A stretch of 64,000 nucleotides of DNA from Elusimicrobiota bacterium (GTDB lineage Bacteria; Elusimicrobiota; Elusimicrobia; UBA1565; UBA9628). A model generated the notes under the pieces. It had not been told where the DNA came from, ran no database searches, and saw only the letters and a program-made list of their open reading frames with translations. Shown here in pieces: positions 4,499-63,921 of the stretch; position 1 is the stretch's first letter, and every line of letters begins with the position of its first letter. Location of the stretch: assembly GCA_016234805.1 (NCBI GenBank), contig JACRNU010000019.1, positions 562-64,561 on the forward strand, in the 5' to 3' direction. A program made the translations under genes and the position numbers.

Positions 4499-5280
4499 TC
4501 CTGGCCCTGCTCGCGCCCGGCGTTTCTGGCGCGGGCGTGCCGCCTCCGCCTGGCACGGGCAGCGGCCTGCTCGCGCTCTTGGCCTTCGGCATGACCTTCG
4601 CGGGAGGCCTCCTTCCGGAGAGGGTCGTGACCCGCATCGGCATGCGCCGCCTCTTCGCGGTGCGGGCCGGCATCCTCCTGGCCGTGGCCTTCACGGAGCT
4701 CCTGCCCGAGGGGCTCGCGCTCGACCGCGCTTTGGCCGGCTGGACGGCCCTGGGGGCCTTCGGCCTGCTCTACGGCCTGGGCTCCATCGCCATGCTCGAC
4801 TCCTGCCCCGAGTACCTCCAGGAGTGCCGGGTCCACTATCTCGGCGCGGCCGCGGTGCTGGCCTTGTCCCTGCACTCCTTCCTCGACGGCTTCAACCTCT
4901 CCGTGTCCTTCGGCGCGGGCCAGGCCGCGGGCCTGGCGGTCGGAGGCGCGGTGATCCTCCACAAGGCCGCGGACGGCTTCACCCTCACGAGCCTCCTGCG
5001 CCAGTCCGGCCTCTCCGCCGGACGGACCTGGGCGATCCTGGCGTCCGTGGCCGCGGCCACGCCGCTCGGCTGCGGCCTGAGCAGCCTGGGCATGGCCGAC
5101 CTGCCCCGGCCCGTCACCGCGGCCCTCATGGGGTTGGCGGCCGGCAGCTTCATCCACATCGGCGCGACCGACGTCCTCCCCCTCGTGCACCGGCGCGAGG
5201 ACCGCGCCTCCATCGCCTGCTTCGCGCTCGCCATGGCCGGCGTCTGCCTGATGAAGTTCCTCTCCCACGGCCATGGATAA
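4495..5280 (+). CDS. ZIP (ZupT-like) family divalent metal transporter
   Basis: Polytopic membrane protein with HSFLDGFNLSVSFGAG and LHKAADGFTLTSLL, which resemble ZIP signature helices. Confidence 0.5.
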   Translation: MILALLAPGVSGAGVPPPPGTGSGLLALLAFGMTFAGGLLPERVVTRIGMRRLFAVRAGILLAVAFTELLPEGLALDRALAGWTALGAFGLLYGLGSIAMLDSCPEYLQECRVHYLGAAAVLALSLHSFLDGFNLSVSFGAGQAAGLAVGGAVILHKAADGFTLTSLLRQSGLSAGRTWAILASVAAATPLGCGLSSLGMADLPRPVTAALMGLAAGSFIHIGATDVLPLVHRREDRASIACFALAMAGVCLMKFLSHGHG

Positions 5281-6715
5281 GAGGACCCTCCTCCAGCAGT
5301 TCGCGGCCTACGCCCCCCATCTGGAGACCCAGCTGCTGGAGAAAGCCTACGACTACTCCATGAAAGCCCACACCGAGCAGGCGCGCGCCTCCGGGGAGGA
5401 CTACTTCTCCCACTGCCTCGCCGTGGCCGGCTACCTGCTGGAGTGGAAGATGGACCTGCCCACGGTCTGCGCGGGACTCCTCCACGACGTCATCGAGGAC
5501 ACCTCGATCACCGCCGAGAAGCTCCGCCTGACCTTCGGAGAGGAGATCATGCGCCTGGTGGTCGCGCTCACCAAGCTCGACAAGGTGCAGTTCTCCTCGC
5601 GCGACGTGGCCCAGGCCGAGAACTGGCGCCGGATGATCCTCGCCACGGCCCAGGACATCCGCGTCATCATCGTCAAGCTCGCCGACCGACTGCACAACAT
5701 GCAGACCATCGGGTTCCTGCCCGGCGAGAAACAAGAGCGCATCGCGCGCGAGACCGTCTCCCTCTACGCGCCCCTGGCCCATCGCCTGGGCATGTTCGAG
5801 CTCAAGGGCGAGCTCGAGGACCTCTCCTTCGCCGTCCTCCATCCCGAGGAGTACCTCGACATCGAAGAGAAGGTGCGGGCCCTCTTGCCCGCCCGCGAGG
5901 CCATGCTGGCCGAGTTCCGCAAGATGCTCGAGCACGCCCTCTCCAAGTCGGACACCCCCCACCGCATCCTGGCGCGGTCCAAGAACCTATACTCGATCTA
6001 CGGGAAGATGCAGCGCCAGAAGAAGCCCTTCGAGGAGATCCAGGACGCGCTCGGCGTGCGCCTCGTCACGGACTCCATCGCCAACTGCTACGCTTTGCTC
6101 GGCATGCTCCACGCGCACTTCCAGCCCGTGCCCGACACCTTCACGGACTACATCGCGCACCCCAAGCTCAACCTCTACAAGAGCCTCCACACCACGGTCA
6201 GCGGGCCCAAGGGCGAGTACATCGAGGTCCAGATCCGGACCGAGGACATGCACCGGACCGCGGAGTACGGCATCGCCGCGCACTGGCGCTACAAGACCGG
6301 CGAGGCCTCCAAGGACGCCCACCTCGAGGAGAAGCTCGACTGGCTGCGCCAGTGGATCGAGTGGCTGCAGGACCTCGACAGCCCCAGGGAGTTCCTCGAC
6401 AGCCTGAAGACCGACCTCGACCTCTACCAGGTCTTCGTCTTCACCCCCCTGGGCGACGTCAAGGCCCTGGTCCAGGGCGCGACGCCCATCGACTTCGCCT
6501 TCGCCGTGCACACGGACATCGGCCACACCTGCGTGGGAGCCCGGGTCAACAACAAGATGGCCAAGCTCGACACCGAGCTCAAGAGCGGCGACATCGTGGA
6601 GATCCTCACGCGCAAGAACTCAACGCCCAAGAAGGACTGGCTCAAGGTCGTCAAGTCCGCGCGCGCCCGGTCCAAGATCAGGCGCTATCTCCGGGAGAAG
6701 GGGATCGTCGCGTGA
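5273..6715 (+). CDS. rel: RelA/SpoT-family (p)ppGpp synthetase/hydrolase, short form (HD + synthetase + TGS, no ACT)
   Basis: HD motif HDVIEDT, synthetase-domain motifs (YKSLHTTV, GIAAHWRYK) and a TGS-like end (GDIVEILT). At 480 aa it is shorter than canonical Rel. Confidence 0.85.
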   Translation: MDKRTLLQQFAAYAPHLETQLLEKAYDYSMKAHTEQARASGEDYFSHCLAVAGYLLEWKMDLPTVCAGLLHDVIEDTSITAEKLRLTFGEEIMRLVVALTKLDKVQFSSRDVAQAENWRRMILATAQDIRVIIVKLADRLHNMQTIGFLPGEKQERIARETVSLYAPLAHRLGMFELKGELEDLSFAVLHPEEYLDIEEKVRALLPAREAMLAEFRKMLEHALSKSDTPHRILARSKNLYSIYGKMQRQKKPFEEIQDALGVRLVTDSIANCYALLGMLHAHFQPVPDTFTDYIAHPKLNLYKSLHTTVSGPKGEYIEVQIRTEDMHRTAEYGIAAHWRYKTGEASKDAHLEEKLDWLRQWIEWLQDLDSPREFLDSLKTDLDLYQVFVFTPLGDVKALVQGATPIDFAFAVHTDIGHTCVGARVNNKMAKLDTELKSGDIVEILTRKNSTPKKDWLKVVKSARARSKIRRYLREKGIVA

Positions 6716-6717
6716 GA

Positions 6718-8127
6718 ATGCTGTGCCTGTCCCTGGCCTCCCTGGCATTCCTGCTGGTTGGCTGCTCTAATACGATGACCGGCTACCCGGCGCACAAGGA
6801 CATCTACGCCAACCTTGCCGTCCCCTCGGCGCCCCCCGCGTTCCCGGACCTCAACCTGGCCCTCGTGCTCTCGGAGAACGCCAAGAACAGCATGAAGACT
6901 CTCCATCGCGACGCCTTTTCGGGATTCGACGCCGGCGCCATGGTCGAGAAGATGTACACACCCCTCCGCCGGAACTTCAAGACCGTCGCCGTGGTGGAAC
7001 GCCCTGAAGACGCCCGCAAAGCCAACGCGGACCTCGTCGTCATCCTCGACGATTACTGGCCCAAGTACGCCTTCGTCTGCCGAGAGGAGCGTACCCTCGT
7101 CTTTATGACACTGGACAACCAGAAGATCGCCGAGTTCAAGGCGGCCTTCGAGAAGACGTGGCTCGGCACGAACGTCCAGGCTTTCATGGACCTGTTCTCC
7201 GACACCCTCAACGAGCAAGTCGAGACCGCGCTGCGCAAATCCCAGGCCTTGGCCGACTTCGCCAAGACCCGGCCCGCCGAAGCCCGGCCCCTGGCGTCCG
7301 CTCCCGAAAGTCCCGCTGCCCCCGCGTCCAAGGTCTACCACTCCGATGTCGACCAGCCGGCCTACTCGTCCCCCGAGAAGGTGGACGACTTCGCCCTTGT
7401 CATCGGCATCGACAAATACTCGACCCTGCCCGCGGCGGACTTCGCCGAGCGCGACGCCTCCGCGGTCCGGGAACACCTTCTGGCCATGGGCTATCCGGAA
7501 AGGAACGTGGTCCTGCTCAGGGGCTCCCAGGCAGGCAAGGCCGGCATCGAGAAATACGTCGAGTCCTGGCTGCCGCGGAACCTCAAGCGGACCTCGCGCC
7601 TCTTCGTGTATTTCTCCGGGCACGGCGCGCCTGACCCGAGAACCGGCCAGGCCTATCTCGTCCCTTGGGACGGAGACCCGCAGTTCCTGGAGAACACCGG
7701 GTATCCCACCAGGCGCCTCTACGCCAAACTCGATTCCCTGGAGGCGAAAAAGGTGTTCGTCGTCCTCGACGCCTGCTTCTCGGGCGCGGGAGGCCGCTCG
7801 GTCCTGGTCAAGGGCGCCCGTCCGCTGGTCGCCCAGGTCGACACGGGCGCCGACGCTTCCGGCAAGCTCATCATCCTGGCTGCCTCGGCGGGCGACGAGA
7901 TCACGGGAACGGACCCGGACCAGGGCCACGGCCTGTTCACCTATTACCTCCTCAAGGGATTGGCCGGCGAAGCCAAGGACCCTCTCGGCCGCGTGACCGT
8001 CAAATCGCTCCACGACTACCTCACCCCGAAGGTCCAGAACGCCGCGCGCAGGCAGAACCGCGATCAGACGCCTGCCCTCATCGGGCCGGCGCCGGCTGAA
8101 GCCGTTCTCAGGGAGAGCTCCCGATGA
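6718..8127 (+). CDS. Caspase-domain (peptidase C14) lipoprotein
   Basis: Lipobox LLVGCS. Caspase His/Cys dyad context: FALVIGIDKY...FVYFSGHGAPD...VFVVLDACFSGAG. The larger 5443-8127 track ORF is an artefact of frame overlap with rel. Confidence 0.7.
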   Translation: MLCLSLASLAFLLVGCSNTMTGYPAHKDIYANLAVPSAPPAFPDLNLALVLSENAKNSMKTLHRDAFSGFDAGAMVEKMYTPLRRNFKTVAVVERPEDARKANADLVVILDDYWPKYAFVCREERTLVFMTLDNQKIAEFKAAFEKTWLGTNVQAFMDLFSDTLNEQVETALRKSQALADFAKTRPAEARPLASAPESPAAPASKVYHSDVDQPAYSSPEKVDDFALVIGIDKYSTLPAADFAERDASAVREHLLAMGYPERNVVLLRGSQAGKAGIEKYVESWLPRNLKRTSRLFVYFSGHGAPDPRTGQAYLVPWDGDPQFLENTGYPTRRLYAKLDSLEAKKVFVVLDACFSGAGGRSVLVKGARPLVAQVDTGADASGKLIILAASAGDEITGTDPDQGHGLFTYYLLKGLAGEAKDPLGRVTVKSLHDYLTPKVQNAARRQNRDQTPALIGPAPAEAVLRESSR

Positions 8128-9305
8128 TCGACCAATCCATCCTCTGCCCCCACTGCGGGAAGACCATTCCGCTGACAGAGGCCCTCACTCACCCCATCGA
8201 GGAGAAGCTGCGCGGCCAGTTCTCCCGCGACCTCGCGGCGCAGAAAGCCGCGATCGAAGCCGAGGCCAGAAAGAGCGCCCGTGAGGCTCTCGGCTCGGAC
8301 TTGGCGGACCTCAAGAGCCAGGTGGCGGAGAAGGGCCGGCTCCTCGAAGAGGCCCGGGCCCAGGAGTTCAGCCTGCGCAAGCGCGGACGCGAGCTCGAGG
8401 AAAAGGAGAAGTCCCTGGCTCTGGAGCTCGAGCGCAAGCTCGACGCGGAGCGCGCGGCCATCAAGGAAGAGGTCCTGGGCAAGGCAGCGGAGGAGCACCG
8501 CCTCAAGGAGCGGGAGAAGGACAAGCAGCTCGACGACATGCGCAAGCAGATCGAGGAGTTGAAAAGGAAGGCGGAGCAGGGCTCCCAGCAGGCCCAGGGC
8601 GAGGTCCAGGAGCTCGAGCTCGAGGACGTCTTGAAGCAGAATTTCCGCTCGGATGAGATCGCTCCCGTGGCCAAGGGCGTTCGAGGCGCGGACGTGCTCC
8701 AGACCGTGTTCTCATCCTCGGGCAAGCCGTGCGGGAGCATCCTCTGGGAGTCCAAGCGCACCAAGGCCTGGAGCGACGGCTGGATCCAGAAGCTCAAGGA
8801 CGACCAGCGCGAGGCCAAGGCCGACCTCGGCATCCTCGTGTCCGCGAACCTGCCCAAGGGAGTCAGCCATGTGGGCTGCGTCGAAGGCGTCTGGGTCGCG
8901 GATTTCTCCTCGGCCATGGGATTAGGGACCGCGTTGCGCGCAGGGATACTGCAGGCCGCCATCGCCCGCAACGCCCTGGTGGGCAAGGGCGAGAAGATGG
9001 AGCTCATCTACAACTATCTCTCCGGACCCGAGTTCCGCAACCGCGTGCAGGCCATCGTGGACGCCTTCGCGGGCATGAAGGTCGAGCTCGACGCCGAGAA
9101 GCGAACCATGGAGCGGGTCTGGGCCAAGCGCGACAAGCAGCTCGAGCGCGTCCTGCTCAACACCGCGGGCATGTACGGCGACCTCCAGGGCCTCATCGGC
9201 GCCCAGCTCGCGCCCATTCCCCAGCTCGAGCTCTCCGCTGAGCATGACGAGAAATCGGAATCGGCTGAGGGCAAACCTGCCCTGTCGGACACAACGCAAG
9301 AATGA
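8124..9305 (+). CDS. DUF2130 family protein (N-terminal CxxC + long coiled coil + conserved C-terminal domain)
   Basis: MIDQSILCPHCGKTIPL start, followed by a K/E/R-rich coiled coil and then a globular C-terminus. Four-nt overlap with the caspase gene. Confidence 0.6.
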   Translation: MIDQSILCPHCGKTIPLTEALTHPIEEKLRGQFSRDLAAQKAAIEAEARKSAREALGSDLADLKSQVAEKGRLLEEARAQEFSLRKRGRELEEKEKSLALELERKLDAERAAIKEEVLGKAAEEHRLKEREKDKQLDDMRKQIEELKRKAEQGSQQAQGEVQELELEDVLKQNFRSDEIAPVAKGVRGADVLQTVFSSSGKPCGSILWESKRTKAWSDGWIQKLKDDQREAKADLGILVSANLPKGVSHVGCVEGVWVADFSSAMGLGTALRAGILQAAIARNALVGKGEKMELIYNYLSGPEFRNRVQAIVDAFAGMKVELDAEKRTMERVWAKRDKQLERVLLNTAGMYGDLQGLIGAQLAPIPQLELSAEHDEKSESAEGKPALSDTTQE

Positions 9306-9321
9306 TTCCCCGGGGAAAGTT

Positions 9322-9355
9322 ATCCACAAACATACGGTACCGTATGTTTGTGGAT
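9322..9355. promoter_or_regulatory. 34-bp perfect palindrome ATCCACAAACATACGGTACCGTATGTTTGTGGAT
   Basis: Verified base by base: positions 9322-9338 are the reverse complement of 9339-9355. It is AT-rich in a GC-rich genome and lies between the DUF2130 stop and the deaminase start. Confidence 0.5.
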
Positions 9356-9370
9356 GACCATCTGAAATTC

Positions 9371-9793
9371 ATGAAGGAAGCCATCCGGGAGGCGAAGAAG
9401 GGGCTCCGCGAGGGCGGCATCCCCATCGGCTCGGTCCTGGTCAAGGACGGCAAGATCATCGGCCGGGGCCGCAACCGGCGCGTGCAGAAGAAGTCCGCCA
9501 TCCTCCACGCCGAGATGGACTGCCTTGAGAACGCGGGCCGGCTCAAAGCCGCGGACTACGAACGCTGCGTCATCTATTCGACCCTCTCGCCCTGCGACAT
9601 GTGCACGGGCGCCATCCTGCTCTACAAGATCCCGGTGGTGGTCATGGGCGAGAACCGCACCTTCAAGGGCCCGGAGGGCTATTCCCGCAAGAAGGTCAAG
9701 CTCGTCAACCTCGACCTCAAGGAATGCCGGGACATGATGGCGGATTTCATCAAGGCTAAACCGCGGCTCTGGAACGAGGACATCGGCGCATAA
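9371..9793 (+). CDS. CDA-fold nucleoside/nucleotide deaminase (TadA/guanine-deaminase-like)
   Basis: Zinc motifs HAEMDCL and SPCDMC. The likely start is the in-frame ATG at 9371 (MKEAIREAKKG); the track ORF starts at 9302 inside the palindrome. Confidence 0.75.
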   Translation: MKEAIREAKKGLREGGIPIGSVLVKDGKIIGRGRNRRVQKKSAILHAEMDCLENAGRLKAADYERCVIYSTLSPCDMCTGAILLYKIPVVVMGENRTFKGPEGYSRKKVKLVNLDLKECRDMMADFIKAKPRLWNEDIGA

Positions 9794-9810
9794 GGACACT
9801 GGCCTGCGCC

Positions 9811-10390
9811 TTGGCAGTCATGCCGGCGTCCGCGGCCCTTGCCCAACAGCGGGTCGTGACCAGGACGCCGGTCCTGGCCCTGCCTGCCTCTCCGATTTCA
9901 GCCGCGGCAGGCGCGCCGACGGCCCCGGTCCTCCTAGGGAGCGCCTCAGGAAGCCCGGCCTCCTGGGTATCATTTTCACCGTCATTATCGCTCCCCGGCC
10001 TCGGCGTCCCCGGGTTACAAGCCTCAGCGGCGCCGGAGGTCCCGTCCGGGCCGGCGGCGCGCGAAGTGCGCGTCATCAGCAACGACCCGGCTTCCCTGGT
10101 CTCGGACACGGCCCGCCAGGCGAACGCGCTGCTCGAAAGGCTGGCCGGCCGGTGGCGCGGTCTGGGCGCCGGAGACGTGCCCCCCATCGAGAAGGTCTAC
10201 CTCATCCCGAAAGCGTTGGACTATCCATCCTTCTACCGACTGGCCTTCGGCCTCGACGATCCAGCGGCCGCTTTCACCGAGTGGCGCGACCGGGTCCTTC
10301 AAGCCTCGGACGCGGACCTGCTCGACGAGTTCGCGCGCTTCGCAGACCGGTTCGGGCCCGGAGAGCATCGAGGCGGAAGCCTGGTTCGCA
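9811..10390 (+). CDS. Hypothetical Ala/Pro-rich protein, possibly the N-terminal part of a frameshifted longer gene
   Basis: Protein-like sequence up to ~10360, then a garbage tail. The downstream frame continues with protein-like sequence (see findings). Confidence 0.3.
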
Positions 10391-10411
10391 CTCACCGGGG
10401 GAGCGTTCTAC

Positions 10412-12034
10412 ATGGCGCGTGCCAGGACCCTGGTGCTCCTGCCCCGGGTCCTGTCCGCGCCAGGCGGCTTCGATCGGAGCGTCCTGGCGCACGAAGCCAC
10501 CCACCACCTCCTCGACCATCTCTGGCCCCGCAGGAGCGGCAAACCCGACGAGCACCTCGCGGTCCTCAAGGAAGCCCTCGCCGACTACGGCGCGGCCTCC
10601 TTCCTGGACGACCCCATCATCGACCGTGACGGCCCGCCGCGCGACATGTCGGCCTTCGCGTCCCTCGACGCCGGGGTCGCGCCAGCCGATGGGACGGCTC
10701 CGGCCTATCTCCAGGGCCAGCCTTTGCGCTGGCTCCTCTGGCAGTTCCGCGGCCGCGTGGGCGCGGACCGCGCGGACCGCCTGGCCTTCACTGCCCTCGC
10801 GGACCTGGCCTCCTCGGCCGAGCTCCCCGGCGCGGGCGACCCCGCGCTCCTGATCCAGGCCTATCTGGAGGCCTTCCAGCGCGGCATTTCCATATCGGAG
10901 AAGGAGAGCTTCCGCGCTCTGGCCTCCGCAATCGGAGCGCGGGTCTCGGACTCAGCCGGCAGCTCCCTCGCCGCGCTTCGGACCTCGCTCCCAGGCCTTT
11001 CCTCCCTGGCCTTGTTCGTCCCGGAAGCCTGGACCGGCGCCCCGGGCGAGCCGTCTGTCGTCGAAGGAGCCCCTTCCGGGAGCCTCGCGCCCGGCCGGTG
11101 GCTGCCCAAAAACAAGGAGCGCCTTGAGCGCCTCATTGCCGAACACGGCCGGGGCGGCACAGCCTGGGACCCGAGCCGGCCTCCCCTGGCGACCTTTGAT
11201 TGGGACAACACGGTCATCCGCAACGACATCGGCGAAGCTGTCTTCTTCCACGCCATCAGGGAGATGCGCTTCAAGTTCGAGCTCGGAGACCGCTTCTGGG
11301 ACCTGATCCCGGAGCGCTACGGCCGCGAGGAACTCCGCTCGGCCGTCGCGTCCCTGACCGGCCTGCCCCTGGAGCAGGCCAAACACACGCCGCAGTACCG
11401 CCGCTACCGGAAGCTCTTCCACCGGATGTACGAAGAGATCAAACGCGACGGAGCGTCCCTCAACATCGACTACGGCTGGCTGGTCCAGCTCATGGTCGGA
11501 TTCACGGAGCCGGAGCTTCAGGGCCTCTCCGACGAGGTCATCGCCTTGGAGACCGGGCGCCCCTTGGGAACCGAGCTGGTCTCGGAAAGCGACAACGACC
11601 CTGACCCGGTCCAGGTGCCGACCGGCATCCGTATTTACCCGGAGATGGCTGACCTTGTCTCCCGCCTTATCGCGATGGGCTGGGAGGTGCGCATCGTGAG
11701 CGCCACCGCGGAGCAGGTCGTGGCCCGATTCGCCGCCCGCCTGGGCATCCCCCTGGGCCGCGTGCATGGAGCGCGCGTCCGTCTGGCCGCGGGCGTCCTG
11801 ACCACGGAGCTCACCCAGCGCACTTGGCGCCAAGGCAAGGCGGACGTCATCCTCCGTGAAGCCGGAAGGCCGAGCGAGCTTGCGGGCGGGGACAGCAACT
11901 CCGACCGCGAGATGCTCGCGCTCTCCCGCGGGGAGAGGCTCGTCATCGACCTCGGGCGGGAACCCCTGCGCAGCGAAGCCCTCTCCCAAGGCTGGCTGCT
12001 CCAGCCCCCCTTCGTCAGGCCTTCTTCGCCCTGA
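10412..12034 (+). CDS. HAD-IB family hydrolase with N-terminal extension containing an HEATH (HExxH) motif
   Basis: HAD motif I (FDWDNT), motif IV (GDSNSDREM) and the cap region. The N-terminal ~250 aa have no clear family assignment. Confidence 0.55.
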   Translation: MARARTLVLLPRVLSAPGGFDRSVLAHEATHHLLDHLWPRRSGKPDEHLAVLKEALADYGAASFLDDPIIDRDGPPRDMSAFASLDAGVAPADGTAPAYLQGQPLRWLLWQFRGRVGADRADRLAFTALADLASSAELPGAGDPALLIQAYLEAFQRGISISEKESFRALASAIGARVSDSAGSSLAALRTSLPGLSSLALFVPEAWTGAPGEPSVVEGAPSGSLAPGRWLPKNKERLERLIAEHGRGGTAWDPSRPPLATFDWDNTVIRNDIGEAVFFHAIREMRFKFELGDRFWDLIPERYGREELRSAVASLTGLPLEQAKHTPQYRRYRKLFHRMYEEIKRDGASLNIDYGWLVQLMVGFTEPELQGLSDEVIALETGRPLGTELVSESDNDPDPVQVPTGIRIYPEMADLVSRLIAMGWEVRIVSATAEQVVARFAARLGIPLGRVHGARVRLAAGVLTTELTQRTWRQGKADVILREAGRPSELAGGDSNSDREMLALSRGERLVIDLGREPLRSEALSQGWLLQPPFVRPSSP

Positions 12035-14112: not shown

Positions 14113-14120
14113 ATTCTGTA

Positions 14121-14315
14121 TTATCTGGAGGGACGGACCACGCGCCCCGACTTGATGCAGACGGAGCAGGCGTAGGCCGTCACGGTCCGACCGTCCAAGA
14201 CGAACTTCTGCCGCTGAAGGTTGGGGCGGAAGACGCGCTTGGTCGCGCGATGGGAGTGGCTATAGCTGAAGCCCGAGACCGGGCCTTTACCGCAGACTGC
14301 GCATTTGAATGCCAT
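14121..14315 (-). CDS. rpmB: 50S ribosomal protein L28
   Basis: 64 aa, MAFKCAVCGK...ATKRVFRPNLQRQKF matches L28. Confidence 0.85.
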   Translation of the reverse strand: MAFKCAVCGKGPVSGFSYSHSHRATKRVFRPNLQRQKFVLDGRTVTAYACSVCIKSGRVVRPSR

Positions 14316-28200: not shown

Positions 28201-28893
28201 TCAGTCTTCGAACTTATAGCCGTGGCCGAGGACGGCCACGATGCGCTTGGCCAGGCCGGGCCCGAGCTTCTTGCGCAGGTGGCAGACATGGACCTCGACC
28301 GTGCCCGGGTCGTTGTAATCGGCCGGGTCGTAGCCCCATACGGTCTCGAGCAGGTAGTTGATGGTCAGGGCCTTGCCGGGCCTGCTCAGCAGGGTCGCAA
28401 GCAGATCGAACTCCTTGCGGGTCAGGGAGACCTTCTTCCCCCGGACGCTGACGGTGCGGCCCGCCGGGTCGAGCTCGACGCCGTGCTTCTTGAGCCGCTC
28501 GTCGGAAACGACCACGACCTTGTAGCGCCTCAGGACCGCCTCGATGCGCGCCTTCAAGACCGCCATGGAGAAGGGCTTGGCCACGTAGTCGTCCGCCCCG
28601 CCCGCGAACCCGGCGAGGACATGCTGCTCGTCGATGAGGGCCCCGCTCATGATGATGATCGGGACGGTCTGGGTCGCGGCCTCCTGCTTGAGCACCCGGC
28701 AGACCGCGTGCCCGTCCAGGCCCGGCATCTGCGCGTCCACCAGGATGATGTCCGGCTTGGACTCGCGCGCCAGCATGAGGGCCTCGGACCCGCTGTCGGA
28801 CACCACGCAGACGAACCCGTTCGCGGACAGGTAGCGCTTGAGCGCTCCCAGCACCGAACGGTCATCATCAACGATGAGTATCTTTGGCTTCAT
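28201..28893 (-). CDS. OmpR-family DNA-binding response regulator
   Basis: REC (MKPKILIVDDD...) plus a winged-helix trans_reg_C domain (LTRKEFDLLATLL...VWGYD...VEVHVCHLRKKL). Confidence 0.85.
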   Translation of the reverse strand: MKPKILIVDDDRSVLGALKRYLSANGFVCVVSDSGSEALMLARESKPDIILVDAQMPGLDGHAVCRVLKQEAATQTVPIIIMSGALIDEQHVLAGFAGGADDYVAKPFSMAVLKARIEAVLRRYKVVVVSDERLKKHGVELDPAGRTVSVRGKKVSLTRKEFDLLATLLSRPGKALTINYLLETVWGYDPADYNDPGTVEVHVCHLRKKLGPGLAKRIVAVLGHGYKFED

Positions 28894-28946
28894 GGGCGCT
28901 CCCTGCCCAGAGTATGCCAAATCGCGGGCCGGGCGCATAGGCCCCG

Positions 28947-29888
28947 TCAATGCACGTCGTCGCGCCTGCGGTCGAAGGCGAAGCGGCTCAAGCGGCCGTC
29001 ATTCCGGGCTTTGCAGTACGACTTCATCTCAGCCGCCAGGGACACTGCCCGGGCATAGTGGTCCATGAGCCGCTGTCGGGAGCTCACGATGCCGATGGAA
29101 AGGGTCAAGAGCGACAGGCGCTGTATCCTCCCCTGCCGGTCCGCGGTCTCGACCCAGCCGCGGGCCAGGTCCACGGCCTCGTAGAACGTGACCGCTTTCT
29201 GGTCGAAGACCGTGACGATCCTCTGGCTGGCCGAAGCCGCATCCTCGGGCCTGGTCAGGAACACGAAGTCGTCGCCCCCGACGTGGCCGAGGAACGCGTC
29301 CTGCAAGGGGCGCAAGGCGGCCTCGATGACGCCTGCGGTGGCCCTGATGACCTCGTCTCCCCGGGCGAATCCGTAGTGGTCGTTGTACGCCTTGAAGTGG
29401 TCGAGGTCCGCGTAGTGAAGCGCGAAGTGCCGGTCCTCCGCGATGCGGCGGGTGACCTCGGCCTCGATCGAGGGCGTCCCCGGCAGGCGGGTCAGGGGGC
29501 TCGCGGCCAGGTCGGTCCTGCTTCGGCGGAGCGCGCTCAGCACATGGGCGCGCAGGTCGTCGGGTTGGAAGGGCTTGGCGATGAAGTCATCGGCCCCGGA
29601 CTCAAGGCCCTCGACCTCGGTCCCTGGCTGGGCGCAGCCCGTGAGCATGATGACCGGGATGGTGCGGGTGCGCGCTCCGGTGCGCAGTTCCTGAAGCACC
29701 TTCCACCCGTCCATGCGGGGCATGGAGAGGTCCAGGATGATGAGGTCCGGGCTCGCGGTCCTGGCCATCTCCAGGGCCGCGGCGCCGTCCTCGGCGCCGA
29801 CCACCTCGTACGCGGGCGCGACCAGCGCCCTGGACACGAGCTTGCGCACCGCCTCCTCGTCGTCAGCCACCAATATCTTCTGGGACAT
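28947..29888 (-). CDS. Response regulator with GGDEF output domain (motif is GGDDF)
   Basis: REC (MSQKILVADDEE...LDLSMPRMDGW) followed by a GGDEF fold (HYADLDHFKAYNDHYGFARGDEV...HVGGDDFVFL). Confidence 0.8.
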   Translation of the reverse strand: MSQKILVADDEEAVRKLVSRALVAPAYEVVGAEDGAAALEMARTASPDLIILDLSMPRMDGWKVLQELRTGARTRTIPVIMLTGCAQPGTEVEGLESGADDFIAKPFQPDDLRAHVLSALRRSRTDLAASPLTRLPGTPSIEAEVTRRIAEDRHFALHYADLDHFKAYNDHYGFARGDEVIRATAGVIEAALRPLQDAFLGHVGGDDFVFLTRPEDAASASQRIVTVFDQKAVTFYEAVDLARGWVETADRQGRIQRLSLLTLSIGIVSSRQRLMDHYARAVSLAAEMKSYCKARNDGRLSRFAFDRRRDDVH

Positions 29889-34531: not shown

Positions 34532-34559
34532 GCGCCCCCCGCCGCCAGGCGGGGGGCGC
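34532..34559. terminator. GC-rich hairpin between convergent genes (putative bidirectional terminator)
   Basis: GCGCCCCCCGCC-GCCA-GGCGGGGGGCGC forms a 12-bp perfect stem. No clear U-tract on either strand. Confidence 0.4.
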
Positions 34560-37482: not shown

Positions 37483-37755
37483 TCAGTCCTCCCAACTCCC
37501 GAGCAGGTTCTTGATCTCCCCCATCTTGGTCTCGATCTGGGCCTTATCCCGGGACTGGATGGCGGTCGTCACGCAGGTGCGCAGATGGCCGTCGAGGATC
37601 TCGATGCCGACCCGCTTCAAGGCCGCGCGGACCGCCTTGATCTGCTGGGCGATGTCGATGCAGTAGCGGCCCTCATCCACCATCTTCCTGATGCCCCGGA
37701 CCTGCCCCTCGATGCGGTTGAGCCTTTTTACGCGATCCCGATCCCCGTGTTCCAT
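37483..37755 (-). CDS. csoR: CsoR/RcnR-family metal-sensing transcriptional repressor
   Basis: RLNRIEGQVRGIRKMVDEGRYCIDIAQQIKAVRAAL...HLRTC, with conserved metal ligands Cys/His/Cys. Confidence 0.8.
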   Translation of the reverse strand: MEHGDRDRVKRLNRIEGQVRGIRKMVDEGRYCIDIAQQIKAVRAALKRVGIEILDGHLRTCVTTAIQSRDKAQIETKMGEIKNLLGSWED

Positions 37756-37788: not shown

Positions 37789-37810
37789 TATACTATACCA
37801 TAGTATAGTA
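37789..37810. promoter_or_regulatory. AT-rich inverted repeat ATACTATAC-CATA-GTATAGTAT upstream of csoR (candidate operator/-10 region)
   Basis: 9-bp perfect arms around a 4-nt centre, 34-55 nt upstream of the csoR start codon. Confidence 0.4.
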
Positions 37811-55494: not shown

Positions 55495-55949
55495 GACATC
55501 CTCCTTGGACCAGGGACAGCGAATTGAAGGCCTCCGCAGGACCAGAGCCTGCTGATAGCAGCGCCGGCCGCCACAGTCGCGACATAAGAAAGGAACGCCG
55601 CCCCCAGCAGAGGCAGCTTGAAGGACTTGAGCACCAGGGCCAGGGCATGGGCGACCACGGCCAAGGTCCGGCCAAGGCCGGGAAAGAACGCGCCCTCTCC
55701 CATGAAGGATGCCGCTCCTGAGTGAAGAGACGGAACCAGCCAGCCCAGGGCCAGGACGCACGGCAGGGCCAGAAGCCCGGCGTAGGCCAGTTGCAAAGGC
55801 GCAGGCCAGGTCCACCAGGCGCGCTTCCACCAGGGCAGGCCTTTCGCAGCTGCCAAGACCCTGGGAAGGAGCGTTGCCGGGGCTTTCAAGGCTGGAAGAG
55901 CCTTGAGCCGCTTGGCGAGAAGATCGTCCGGATCAGGCCGGATGCTCAT
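55491..55949 (-). CDS. Putative membrane anti-sigma factor
   Basis: 152 aa with N-terminal cytoplasmic region, then TM helices. ATGA-type overlaps with the ECF sigma gene upstream and the RDD gene downstream. Confidence 0.45.
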   Translation of the reverse strand: MSIRPDPDDLLAKRLKALPALKAPATLLPRVLAAAKGLPWWKRAWWTWPAPLQLAYAGLLALPCVLALGWLVPSLHSGAASFMGEGAFFPGLGRTLAVVAHALALVLKSFKLPLLGAAFLSYVATVAAGAAISRLWSCGGLQFAVPGPRRMS

Positions 55950-56476
55950 GCCTTCTCCCCAAGGAGAGCCTTGAGCGCCCCCCTGCCCCTGAAGATGTCC
56001 GTCTTGACCTTTCCCAGGGAGATGTCGAGCTTGGCCGCGATGTCCTCGTAGCTCATGTCCTCGAAATGGAACAGCACCAGGGGCGCTCGCTGGTGGTCGG
56101 GGAGCTTCAGAAGGGCTTCCTGCAGATCCCCTGCTTCGGCCCCGGATGGGATTTCCATGACCGCTGAGTCCGGCTCAGCGAGTCGTTCCTCAATGCCGGC
56201 TGAATCCTCCTCCGAAAGCTGGCTGAAGAGCTTCCAGCGGCTCCGATGCCTGTTAAGGTGGTTCAAGGAAAGATTCGCGGCCACGGTCCTCAGCCAGGCC
56301 CCGGCGCCAAGGCTTCCCTGCAGGGACTCGAAGCGCTCAAAAGCCTTCAGGAAAGTCTCCTGGCTGACGTCCTCGGCATCCGGTCCCCTGCCGAGGAGCC
56401 TGGCCGCCGTGGTGTAGACCATGTCCTGGTATCTCCTGACGAATCCCTCGAATTCAGCGGGGTCGCAAGCCATCAC
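55946..56476 (-). CDS. ECF (sigma-70 family group IV) sigma factor
   Basis: Region 2 (FEGFVRRYQDMVYTTAARLL...DVSQETFLKAF) and region 4 HTH (LVLFHFEDMSYEDIAAKLDISLGKVKTDIFRGR). Confidence 0.85.
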   Translation of the reverse strand: MMACDPAEFEGFVRRYQDMVYTTAARLLGRGPDAEDVSQETFLKAFERFESLQGSLGAGAWLRTVAANLSLNHLNRHRSRWKLFSQLSEEDSAGIEERLAEPDSAVMEIPSGAEAGDLQEALLKLPDHQRAPLVLFHFEDMSYEDIAAKLDISLGKVKTDIFRGRGALKALLGEKA

Positions 56477-56558
56477 CGCTCCACCATAACAACACGCGGA
56501 CAGGGAAAAAGTTTCACCAGAACGCGCGCCGCCACATGGCTAGGCTATAATATCCGCC

Positions 56559-57620
56559 ATGAGCGCCGCGACCCTGGGACGCAGGCCCGAACTCCTGGCC
56601 CTGCTCTCAGCGGTCTTCTTCGGAGCGAGCATCCCGCTTTCCAAGATCCTGCTCGGCCAGACCCATGCCCTGGCCCTTTCCGGCCTCCTCTATATGGGCA
56701 GCGGCATGGCCCTGTCAGGACTGCTCCTGACAGGCCGCTTCATGGGCCGCGGAATGACCGAGGCGCCCCTGTCCCGCGACGACGCGCCCTGGCTGGCCGG
56801 AGCCATCCTCTGCGGCGGCGTGCTCGCCCCGCTATGCTTCCTCACCGGACTCGACCGGACCCCGGGTTCGACAGCGTCTTTGATGCTCAACCTGGAGACC
56901 CCTTTCACGGTCCTGCTGGCAGCGCTCTTGTTCCACGAAGCGATCGGCGGATTCGCCTGGGGGGCGCTGGCCTGCGCCCTGGCTGGAAGCCTGCTCCTCT
57001 CCTATGATGCCGGACCAAGCGGAGGAGGGTTGAGGGGCCCGGTCCTGCTCGCCGCTTCCTGCGGCCTCTGGGCCATGGACAACAACCTCACAAGGAACAT
57101 CAGCCACAAGGACCCGGTGTCCGCGTCCGCCATCAAGGGCCTGGCAGCCGGAACCGCGCTCCTGGGCCTCACCGCGGCCTTTGGAGTGCCCCTGCCTGAT
57201 GCCAGGCGGATCCTCGCGGCCCTGGCCGTCGGAGCGGTCTGCTACGGCGCGAGCCTTGTCCTTTTCGTCCGCTCCCTGAGAGCCCTCGGCACGGGCCGCA
57301 CCGGCATCATCTTCGCCACCGGCCCCTTCATCGGGTCCCTGGTCTCCATCGTGGTCCTGGGAGAGCCCGTGAAAGCCTCCCTGCTGGCCGGGGGTGTCCT
57401 CATGGCTGCCGGGACCTGGCTCCTCCTTCGCGAGGATCACGGCCATGACCACAGGCACGAGCGGCACGAGCACGACCATGGCCACACCCACGACGACCAC
57501 CACGGCCACGAACACGCCGAAGACGGCGTGGAAGGCGAGCACAGCCACCCCCACCTGCATCCCGAACTCGAACACAGCCATCCCCACCGGCCGGACATCC
57601 ACCACCGGCATCCGCACTAG
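56559..57620 (+). CDS. EamA/DMT-superfamily transporter with His-rich C-terminal tail
   Basis: Ten TM helices in two EamA halves, and a C-terminal HGHDHRHERHEHDHGHTHDDHHGHEH tail. Confidence 0.75.
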   Translation: MSAATLGRRPELLALLSAVFFGASIPLSKILLGQTHALALSGLLYMGSGMALSGLLLTGRFMGRGMTEAPLSRDDAPWLAGAILCGGVLAPLCFLTGLDRTPGSTASLMLNLETPFTVLLAALLFHEAIGGFAWGALACALAGSLLLSYDAGPSGGGLRGPVLLAASCGLWAMDNNLTRNISHKDPVSASAIKGLAAGTALLGLTAAFGVPLPDARRILAALAVGAVCYGASLVLFVRSLRALGTGRTGIIFATGPFIGSLVSIVVLGEPVKASLLAGGVLMAAGTWLLLREDHGHDHRHERHEHDHGHTHDDHHGHEHAEDGVEGEHSHPHLHPELEHSHPHRPDIHHRHPH

Positions 57621-57653
57621 GCCGGCGCAAGCGCCGGCCTAGTCCCGGCGCTC

Positions 57654-58763: not shown

Positions 58764-58807
58764 CGGTTTCCGATGGTATCATAACAAGCTATACTCTCCT
58801 TGCCAAA

Positions 58808-62354: not shown

Positions 62355-62390
62355 GCGGCATAAGCGGCCGGATGTAACACAATGAATAAG

Positions 62391-62426
62391 GTTCTATCGG
62401 CAGTGCGGCAGCATTGCTGATAGAAC
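62391..62426. repeat. Inverted repeat GTTCTATC-N20-GATAGAAC near the 3' side of the IS91-family transposase (candidate oriIS-type end)
   Basis: Contains a GTTC tetranucleotide; a second small palindrome GGATT-N9-AATCC lies at 62456-62474. Confidence 0.3.
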
Positions 62427-62670: not shown

Positions 62671-63921
62671 TCATGAAGAGTCGAAGACCTCGGGCCACCA
62701 GGCCCGAAGCAAGACGGCGGGAACCTTTTGCAGTTCGGCGACGACCAGCATAGTACCCTTCCCGCAGTCCGGGCACCGGGCGAGGTCCTCGCCGGTGAGT
62801 TCCCGCAGGCGCTCCTGGGGCGATTGTCCTTCCGGCTCGGGGACGTCGGGAGCCATGCCCAGCAGTTCACGGCAGCGCTTGAGGTCCGAAGCCTTGGCGC
62901 GATTGGCGAGGAACCCGAAATGGCGGATGCGGACAAAGGCAGGCGGGAGCGCATGGAGGAGGAAGCGGCGGATGAACTCGTCGGCCTGGAGGGTCAAGGG
63001 CTTGATGACGTTGCCGTGGGTGCGGTCGCAGAACCTGAACGTGACGGCTCCGTTTTGGACGTTGAGGATGCGGTCGTTGGAGATGGCGACGCGGTGGACG
63101 TAGCGCGCGAGGTAGCCGAGGACCTTGCGGGGTCCTCCGAAGGGAGGCTGGGCATAGACGATCCAGTTCTTTTGGTAGAGCGGGTCGATGAGGCTGAAGA
63201 AACCTTCCGGGGTTGCCCACTGGACCGTTGAGCCCGGGAAATGGAGCTTGCCTTGGGCGAAGGCCTCTTTGAGTGCCCCGAGGTACTTGGCTCGGAAGAC
63301 GAGGGCGAGGTTGCGTACGGGGAAGAGGAACTTCTTGGGCGCGTGGACCCAGTGCTCGCCGTCTGGGGAGAGGACGCCGGCCGGGATGAGGCAGTGGAGG
63401 TGGACGTGCTGGAGGAGCTTCTGGTCCCAGGTGTGCAGGACCGCGATGAAGCCGAGCTTGCCGCCGAGGCGGCTTCGTGGGTCGCGGGCGAACTGCTGGA
63501 GGGTCTGGGCGACGCAGCGGAAGAGGGCGTCAAGGGCAAGAGGCTTGTTGCGCAGGATCAAGGGATTGAGCTCGTGGGGCAGGGTGAAGACGGCGTGGAA
63601 GTACGGCACGGGCAAGAGCTCGGCGGTGCGGGCGTCGAGCCATTGGGCCTTGGCGAGGGACTGGCATTTGGGGCAGTGGCGGTTGCGGCAGGAGTTGTAG
63701 GCTTGGCGCTCGAACCCGCAGCGGTCGCAGTGCTCGACGTGTCCGCCGAGTGCTGGGGTGCGGCAGTCAACAACGTCGCGCATGATCTTGGCCTGCGCGG
63801 GCGGCAGGGGATGGGAGCGGCCGAAGTCCCCGCCATGGAGGCGGAAAACGTCCGCCAGCTCCCAGCGCGGCCTTGTGCGGCCGGCCGACCCTGCCGCCCC
63901 AGCGGGGCGGTGGCACGGCAT
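62671..63921 (-). CDS. IS91-family (rolling-circle, HUH/Y2) transposase
   Basis: N-terminal zinc-binding domain HCDRCGFERQAYNSCRNRHCPKCQ, HUH-region HVHLHCLIPAGV, and a C-terminal Tyr region. Confidence 0.85.
   Translation of the reverse strand: MPCHRPAGAAGSAGRTRPRWELADVFRLHGGDFGRSHPLPPAQAKIMRDVVDCRTPALGGHVEHCDRCGFERQAYNSCRNRHCPKCQSLAKAQWLDARTAELLPVPYFHAVFTLPHELNPLILRNKPLALDALFRCVAQTLQQFARDPRSRLGGKLGFIAVLHTWDQKLLQHVHLHCLIPAGVLSPDGEHWVHAPKKFLFPVRNLALVFRAKYLGALKEAFAQGKLHFPGSTVQWATPEGFFSLIDPLYQKNWIVYAQPPFGGPRKVLGYLARYVHRVAISNDRILNVQNGAVTFRFCDRTHGNVIKPLTLQADEFIRRFLLHALPPAFVRIRHFGFLANRAKASDLKRCRELLGMAPDVPEPEGQSPQERLRELTGEDLARCPDCGKGTMLVVAELQKVPAVLLRAWWPEVFDSS

Follow-up and report, generated by a model that had tools for sequence, protein, structure and literature searches.

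Stem-loops that lack a U-tract are known at the 3' ends of bacterial messages and between cistrons, as the hairpin-only terminators of high-GC bacteria and the stabilising hairpins of the malE-malF and puf operons. Hairpins that occlude a start codon repress translation, examples being structured translation-initiation regions and the operator hairpins of the phage MS2 type. Among DNA operators, IR1 of the TetR-family regulator QacR is a long palindrome (28 bp) that is bound by paired dimers, and the PurR box is a 16-bp palindrome whose half-sites, ..GCAAAC and GTTTGC.., abut at a central CG.

Here, we compare these systems with a palindrome from the metagenome-assembled genome (MAG) of an uncultured member of the Elusimicrobia. 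The whole stretch of DNA that was analysed, 64 kb in length, is called the window; proteins encoded in it are 100% identical to MBI5882041-43. The palindrome, ATCCACAAACATACGGTACCGTATGTTTGTGGAT, is located at 9322-9355 between a DUF2130 gene and a cytosine deaminase gene.

Gene context and the start of the deaminase frame

The surrounding cluster is encoded on the plus strand. A relA/spoT homologue (5273-6715) is followed by a gene for a caspase-family lipoprotein (6718-8127), the DUF2130 gene (8124-9305, stop codon TGA at 9303-9305) and a gene for a cytosine deaminase of the yeast FCY1 type (9344-9793). The upstream genes abut or overlap: relA stops at 6715 and the caspase gene starts at 6718; the latter stops at 8127, past the DUF2130 start at 8124. 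Between the co-directional DUF2130 and deaminase genes, the palindrome fills a gap of 38 nt. The deaminase is a CMP/dCMP-type zinc deaminase, and its best solved relatives are the FCY1-type cytosine deaminases 1uaq and 1p6o (E = 1e-37). DUF2130 proteins belong to the PD-(D/E)XK superfamily and are of unknown function (PMC3424549).

A second member of the DUF2130 cluster formed at 90% identity, P0361, is 91% identical to the window protein and is encoded on a 1,917-bp Logan contig from a different run, SRR22387949 (locus L077, a sister lineage). This contig contains the 3' end of relA, a 147-nt caspase remnant, DUF2130, the palindrome and the start of the deaminase gene. Its nucleotide identity to the window is 90.8% in the 3' part of relA (83% at third positions), 89.8% in DUF2130 (80%) and 95% in the 5' part of the deaminase gene (90%). 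The deaminase is well conserved, with 58/60 amino acids identical, so the gene appears to be still in use. At 371-516 of L077, the caspase gene is deleted apart from some 100 nt at the 3' end (..RRQNRDQTP..), which precede DUF2130.

The deaminase start probably lies inside the right arm of the palindrome, at ATG 9344 (149 aa) or GTG 9350 (147 aa), because the N-termini of homologues, the domain and structure alignments and two independent gene calls point there; the alternative starts are ATG 9371 and ATG 9302. Among 120 deaminase homologues, the residues xxHLKFMKEAI are kept before methionine 9371, and several homologues have L or I at that position. The Pfam and PDB alignments also begin ahead of this methionine. 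The NCBI annotation starts at GTG 9350 (147 aa, MBI5882043.1), and the gene caller on L077 picked the equivalent of ATG 9344. The preliminary description of this DNA had preferred ATG 9371, 16 nt downstream of the palindrome, a choice that the conserved residues before this methionine speak against. It had also placed the first in-frame ATG of the reading frame within the palindrome; the ATG found there is 9344, and the first one is ATG 9302, upstream of the palindrome, where it forms an ATGA overlap with the DUF2130 stop.

The stretch headed by ATG 9302 and in frame with the deaminase (9302-9343, plus strand, 14 codons) is low in GC3 and differs from L077 by one synonymous and three non-synonymous changes. 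Hence, it is probably not coding, and an N-terminal extension of the deaminase from ATG 9302 was rejected. Neither 9344 nor 9350 is preceded by a Shine-Dalgarno sequence in the window.

In the closest syntenic relative, GCA_041662295.1 (locus L001), the deaminase is 90% identical and the order is relA, a 295-bp spacer and the deaminase gene, without the caspase gene, DUF2130 or the palindrome. Nucleotide homology between the window and L001 stops at 6697 and restarts at 9368; at the protein level, similarity starts with the codon ending at 9355. The 2.67-kb segment in between (6698-9367, plus strand), which comprises the caspase lipoprotein gene, DUF2130 and the palindrome, is lineage-specific by this synteny comparison, and the palindrome therefore sits at its right-hand junction. 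No palindrome was found at the four orthologous deaminase loci (L001; L002-L005; L063/L064; L079/L080), which rules it out as a conserved feature of the deaminase family. Two of these loci have an ordinary Shine-Dalgarno sequence followed by ATG and no hairpin (GAGGAGG in L002, GGGAGGA in L063), and at L079, where a hairpin is likewise absent, the start codon overlaps the upstream stop as TAATG. The L063 contig opens, at 1-150, with an inverted repeat whose arms are each about 40 nt long (cagcgcatgacggagtcgaagactctc ... gagagtcttcgactccgtcatgcgctg), which is probably a fold-back assembly artefact at the contig end. A second segment specific to the window and absent from L001 spans 9789-12012. 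It contains an open reading frame (10412-12034) with a C-terminal HAD-IB phosphatase domain and an overlapping one (9811-10629) without a Pfam match; the two may belong to one gene whose start is uncertain.

A signal that travels with DUF2130 was ruled out as well: at 13 other DUF2130 loci (L058-L060, L061/L062, L078 and ten viral contigs), the gene is not followed by a comparable palindrome. Two of them are Elusimicrobia loci in defence-island-like contexts, one lies beside a histidine kinase gene, and ten are on viral contigs. Among the neighbours of DUF2130 relatives (L058-L062, L067-L076) are type III restriction-modification genes, nucleases of the DUF1016/YhcG kind, and TIR and NERD proteins; ten relatives are found on viral contigs of IMG/VR. 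The family has the look of cargo that is mobile or belongs to defence islands or phages. PADLOC gave only weak coiled-coil matches of DUF2130 to LmuB and JetC.

Symmetry, conservation and copy number of the palindrome

Direct inspection of the sequence and comparison with shuffles agree with the preliminary description that 9322-9355 is an exact reverse-complement palindrome of 17+17 nt with a GGTACC centre. The symmetry widens to an inverted repeat of 20+20 nt (9319-9358) with one non-complementary position, T9321/G9356. The base of this stem at 9319 is 13 nt 3' of the DUF2130 stop. No longer perfect palindrome occurs in the window. The palindrome had no match in 100 dinucleotide shuffles, and the maximum arm in 30 such shuffles was 14; under a uniform expectation, 3.7e-6 palindromes of 17+17 nt are expected in 64 kb. 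The palindrome is thus real and statistically exceptional, not a product of chance. Its AT-rich character in a GC-rich background, also noticed before, is equally clear: it has 41% GC in a window of about 67% GC and lies inside a dip of 47-50% GC, with flanking 100-nt windows at 62-75%.

Between 9306 and 9370, six substitutions separate the window from L077. The 13 nt that lead up to the stem hold three of them (9310, 9312, 9315). Another alters the dyad centre, where A9339 is G in L077 (GGTGCC), and the remaining two, T9355 to C and G9356 to A, affect the outer edge. The left 15-bp arm (TCCACAAACATACGG, 9323-9337) and the right one (CCGTATGTTTGTGGA, 9340-9354, including ATG 9344 and GTG 9350) are unchanged, so that two substitutions fall in the 34-nt palindrome. 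The dyad centre at 9338-9339 is also the centre of the hairpin loop. In terms of pairs, the arms are identical in the two lineages, and the outer pairs change from U.G to U-A and from A-U to A.C. Judged from these two sequences, the conserved unit is the pair of 15-bp arms around a 4-nt centre, with the perfect 17+17 symmetry incidental, and the palindrome is older than the divergence of the two lineages. With arms defined post hoc, the probability that none of the six substitutions hits one of the 30 arm positions is 0.02, and that of no change in 30 nt is 0.001-0.04 for a neutral divergence of 20-10%. With the 34-nt unit fixed a priori, 2/34 versus 4/31 positions changed, which is not significant (P = 0.41). 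The comparison suggests that the palindrome is under constraint.

Allowing up to 3 mismatches over 34 or 17 nt, or up to 2 over 13 nt, we found neither a second copy nor another half-site in the 64 kb, and no site or half-site in about 100 kb of related Elusimicrobia loci. No other copy was present in 185,579 representative genomes, JGI metagenomes, IMG/VR, plasmids or phages. The preliminary description had held that membership in a scattered REP/MITE-like family would speak against its reading; with one copy in the window and none in the related loci or the public collections, such a family was rejected, and the palindrome is not a dispersed repeat. In IMG/VR, the 17-nt half-site gave six isolated, non-palindromic chance matches. 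A plasmid or phage origin was also rejected, as these searches returned only chance fragments (E >= 3).

Scans for gapped arms returned 4 loci in the 185,579 representative genomes (CACAAACATAC-N(0-12)-GTATGTTTGTG) and 42 in the JGI metagenomes (CACAAACATAC-N(0-30)-GTATGTTTGTG), none with the GGTACC centre. A cross-phylum "CACAAACATAC hairpin" family was rejected since these loci are unrelated hairpins from different hosts: they are unlike in loop, flanking sequence, GC content and context, some resemble microsatellites of eukaryotes, and only an 11-mer is common to all. In Omnitrophota, an unrelated perfect hairpin with arms of about 20 bp, ccgtaacttCACAAACATAC-aat-GTATGTTTGTGaagttacgg, lies between an ExeA-like ATPase gene and PilZ-domain genes on three contigs (L012 at 1412-1454, L034 and L043), and the 11-mer is all that it has in common with the palindrome of the window. 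The string GTATGTTnGT also occurs at an apparent start at 37810, which was judged a chance resemblance; the reading frame there is probably spurious because GC3 favours the minus-strand genes in that region.

Fold, gene-end signals and candidate explanations

The preliminary description had offered an operator or a structured RNA element. This remains the right pair of candidates, and we lean towards the RNA: with a probability of about 0.4, the palindrome works as an RNA stem-loop between two cistrons, in which the start codons of the deaminase gene are buried.

The 40-mer of the window folds at -26.7 kcal/mol on the plus strand (18-bp stem, GUAC loop) and at -22.5 kcal/mol with a shorter stem on the minus strand. 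For L077, the values are -22.3 kcal/mol on the plus strand, with one A.C mismatch, and -26.6 kcal/mol with the full stem on the minus strand. Both sequences are well past shuffled controls (z = -7.8 for the window, z = -7.0 for L077), which argues for the RNA stem-loop. As single-stranded DNA, the hairpin reaches -15.7 kcal/mol. The wobble-extended outer stem favours the plus strand in the window and the minus strand in L077, so it carries no weight; a strand-specific RNA deduced from the U.G pair was rejected, and a consistent strand signal is thus missing from the case for the RNA stem-loop. Rfam gave no match at the gathering threshold in the window, which excludes a known RNA family; below it were generic miRNA-precursor hairpins only (e.g., 25.5 bits against a gathering score of 100).

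A SECIS-type recoding signal and stop-codon read-through were considered and rejected. Reading through the UGA would add 19 codons that are out of frame with the deaminase, every L077 difference in this frame is non-synonymous, and by direct reading the loop is 32 nt from the UGA. In bacterial SECIS elements, the loop lies about 20 nt from it. A -1 frameshift fusing DUF2130 to the deaminase was also rejected: frame 2 has a stop at 9266-9268, and there is no slippery heptamer.

Gene-end signals: Two perfect GC-rich hairpins with arms of 12-13 bp, at 34532-34559 and 57616-57643, are located between convergent genes and have no U-tract. Their loops are GCCA and GCAA, and they look like bidirectional terminators. 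The palindrome has neither the GC-rich stem (41% GC) nor the T-run of a classical intrinsic terminator, the next bases being GACCATCTGAAATTC; its position, 13 nt past a stop codon, is that of a terminator. The preliminary description was right that the U-tract is missing, and it had set a classical intrinsic terminator aside on this ground. A terminator-like role is not excluded thereby, because the likely terminators of this genome lack a U-tract as well and the feature is therefore not discriminating. Hairpins without a U-tract are a normal gene-end signal in this Elusimicrobia genome, which helps to annotate such MAGs.

Promoters and regulators: Sigma-70-like promoters with 10/12 matches were found at real starts (14361-14333 and 58806-58778), and none reached the scan threshold in 9000-10000. 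The best promoter-like pair by eye in the palindrome region is TTATCC (9320-9325)-17-TATGTT (9343-9348), with 7/12 matches and both hexamers kept in L077. Some genes have a strong -10 box as little as about 7-15 nt ahead of the start codon (56538-56561; 14113-14125 and 58778-58806, both minus). TATAAT and GATAAT, for instance, precede ATG 56559 and GTG 14112, respectively, by 7 nt, and TTGGCA-17-TATGAT ends 14 nt ahead of ATG 58763. This spacing points to leaderless or very short-leader mRNAs in the source organism. No transcription-factor gene lies within about 15 kb of the palindrome; the regulator genes of the window are an OmpR-type gene (28201-28950), a CsoR-like repressor gene of the metal-sensing CsoR/RcnR family (37483-37755, minus) and an ECF sigma factor gene (55946-56476). 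An AT-rich dyad, TATACTAT-ACC-ATAGTATA, at 37789-37807 is 34-52 nt upstream of the CsoR/RcnR-family gene and may be the operator of that gene itself; its TACT-N7-AGTA shape resembles RcnR-type operators.

For the RNA stem-loop, we propose the following. A polycistronic RNA running from relA through the caspase-family lipoprotein gene and DUF2130 to the cytosine deaminase would carry the palindrome as a cis-acting stem-loop. The palindrome would have come with, or arisen at, the right-hand junction of the lineage-specific insertion, which would have replaced the native upstream region of the deaminase gene and its ribosome-binding site. The predicted stem of 14-18 bp, at about -22 to -27 kcal/mol, may form in vivo, and its 3' arm would hide ATG 9344 and GTG 9350. 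The hairpin may thus act as a 3' end, barrier or stabiliser for the upstream message, and it may keep translation initiation at the deaminase low or divert it to ATG 9371 or, alternatively, to ribosomes coupled at the ATGA overlap (9302).

Several observations argue for the stem-loop besides its stability. It occupies the 38-nt gap in a co-directional cluster of abutting or overlapping genes, in a region where the promoter scan is empty although it succeeds at real starts elsewhere, and the only other clean long hairpins of the window are also at gene ends without U-tracts. The orthologues have a Shine-Dalgarno sequence and ATG, or TAATG, and no hairpin, whereas the window has no Shine-Dalgarno sequence. 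In L077, the arms are intact, with substitutions only at the centre of the loop, the outer edge and the 13 nt ahead of the stem, and the deaminase is well conserved. Against it, a stem with 41% GC fits sequence-specific recognition better than pairing alone, and neither arm has changed, hence no compensatory change is seen. The a priori conservation test is not significant, and so stable a stem should nearly silence a gene that is seemingly under purifying selection. If the stem-loop is real, the locus is a local case of a gene insertion rewiring its neighbour: the insertion would have removed the salvage gene's own ribosome-binding site and promoter region and left its start codon buried in a stable stem-loop that two lineages have kept. 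As a single-copy feature known from two uncultured lineages only, the palindrome opens no general question.

The main rival, a DNA operator, is possible, though we hold it to be doubtful. The palindrome, perhaps with an embedded weak promoter, would be bound by a dimeric or dimer-of-dimers repressor of the deaminase gene, whose control would follow the removal of its native upstream region by the insertion. Dyad symmetry and an AT-rich composition in a 67% GC genome are consistent with this, as are the overlap with the 5' end of a salvage gene and the pattern in L077, where the arms are conserved in sequence and the centre has changed, as operator centres often tolerate. The pair TTATCC-17-TATGTT would supply the promoter; it stays below the scan threshold. 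The nearest transcription-factor genes, OmpR-type and CsoR-like, lie beyond 15 kb, no second site or half-site turned up in the 64 kb or in about 100 kb of related loci, and the four orthologous deaminase loci are without the palindrome. Perfect arms of 15-17 bp also exceed typical half-sites, the CsoR-associated dyad of the window being 8+3+8, and a PurR box is excluded. The more specific version, in which an operator with this weak promoter was installed together with the caspase/DUF2130 insertion and controls the deaminase, is a shade more doubtful. Were the operator confirmed, Elusimicrobia would have their first defined cis-regulatory motif, and the junction of an insertion would have given rise to a regulatory site. 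Recognition of the palindrome by the adjacent DUF2130 PD-(D/E)XK protein is hardly to be expected.

It is unlikely that the palindrome is a functionally neutral remnant, left when a rearrangement brought the insertion up against the deaminase gene and persisting only because little time has passed. A template switch or inverted copy seeded at GGTACC could then have overwritten the ribosome-binding site and the start codon. Such an event would account for a lineage-specific palindrome exactly where homology to the orthologue is lost (resuming at 9368) and for the perfect centre in the window, as a DNA-level inverted copy would give. The P value of 0.41 in the a priori test and the low divergence near the deaminase, with third positions 90% identical, are also compatible with neutrality. 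However, the palindrome predates the split of lineages that differ at about 20% of DUF2130/relA third positions, and its arms have not changed since, while 3/13 nt just upstream have; depending on the assumed neutral rate, the probability of no change in the 30 nt is 0.001-0.04.

Very unlikely, in our view, is a recombination or mobile-element site marking the edge of the insertion, be it a tyrosine-recombinase core, abutted terminal inverted repeats or a species-restricted REP/MITE. The palindrome does lie at the junction of a variable segment, and close relatives of DUF2130 occur in variable, defence-island-like or viral contexts. Tyrosine-recombinase core sites have an arm-centre-arm geometry (11-bp arms, 6-bp centre) that the palindrome resembles. 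The window also holds an IS91-family transposase gene (62671-63921, minus strand; Y2_Tnp and Zn_Tnp_IS91 domains), but this lies at a distance of 53 kb, and the hairpin beside it is not the same. That hairpin, near the 3' end of the gene at about 62389-62424, consists of GTTCTATCGGCA, a 12-nt spacer and TGCTGATAGAAC and may be an IS end. Furthermore, the left junction and the rest of the window have no match with up to 3 mismatches, no other copy is found in any collection searched, no recombinase gene lies in or beside the inserted segment, and the deletion of the caspase gene in L077 does not involve the palindrome. A dif/Xer site was rejected, as GC skew is negative throughout the window without a switch and there is no partner site.

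An assembly or library artefact can practically be dismissed: palindromes can confuse de Bruijn graph assemblers and the source is a MAG, but the independent Logan assembly of SRR22387949, from a diverged lineage, has the palindrome at the same position with two substitutions, synteny with L001 holds on either side, two more Logan contigs confirm the relA-caspase-DUF2130 junctions, and 34 bp is shorter than a sequencing read.

Comparison with known systems

PurR box: The palindrome contains CAAAC (9328-9332) and GTTTG (9347-9351), and the preliminary description had compared these half-sites with boxes of this LacI-family repressor. They are 14 bp apart instead of abutting, which rules out a PurR box. 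The downstream gene encodes a cytosine deaminase of the yeast type, not the codA type, and no LacI-family domain was found in the roughly 33 window proteins scanned.

QacR IR1-type operator: As in IR1, a long AT-rich dyad is found at the 5' end of the gene that would be regulated. It differs in that a regulator gene next to it, a recognisable promoter and a second site are all missing.

Start-occluding hairpins: As in hairpins that repress translation by hiding the start, the candidate starts ATG 9344 and GTG 9350 are part of the 3' arm, and they lack a preceding Shine-Dalgarno sequence. The palindrome differs from these in having no known partner protein or melting mechanism and in the stability of its stem (-22 to -27 kcal/mol), which greatly exceeds that of regulatory hairpins that open and close.

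U-tract-less stem-loops: Compared with the window's own hairpins at 34532-34559 and 57616-57643, the palindrome lies between co-directional rather than convergent genes and overlaps the next start codon. In comparison with the described 3'-end and intercistronic stem-loops, its stem is AT-rich rather than GC-rich and longer (15-18 bp). It matches them in being a stable, perfect stem a few nucleotides past a stop codon, in a co-directional cluster and without a T-run. The palindrome is a fresh instance of an already known kind of feature rather than a novel kind.
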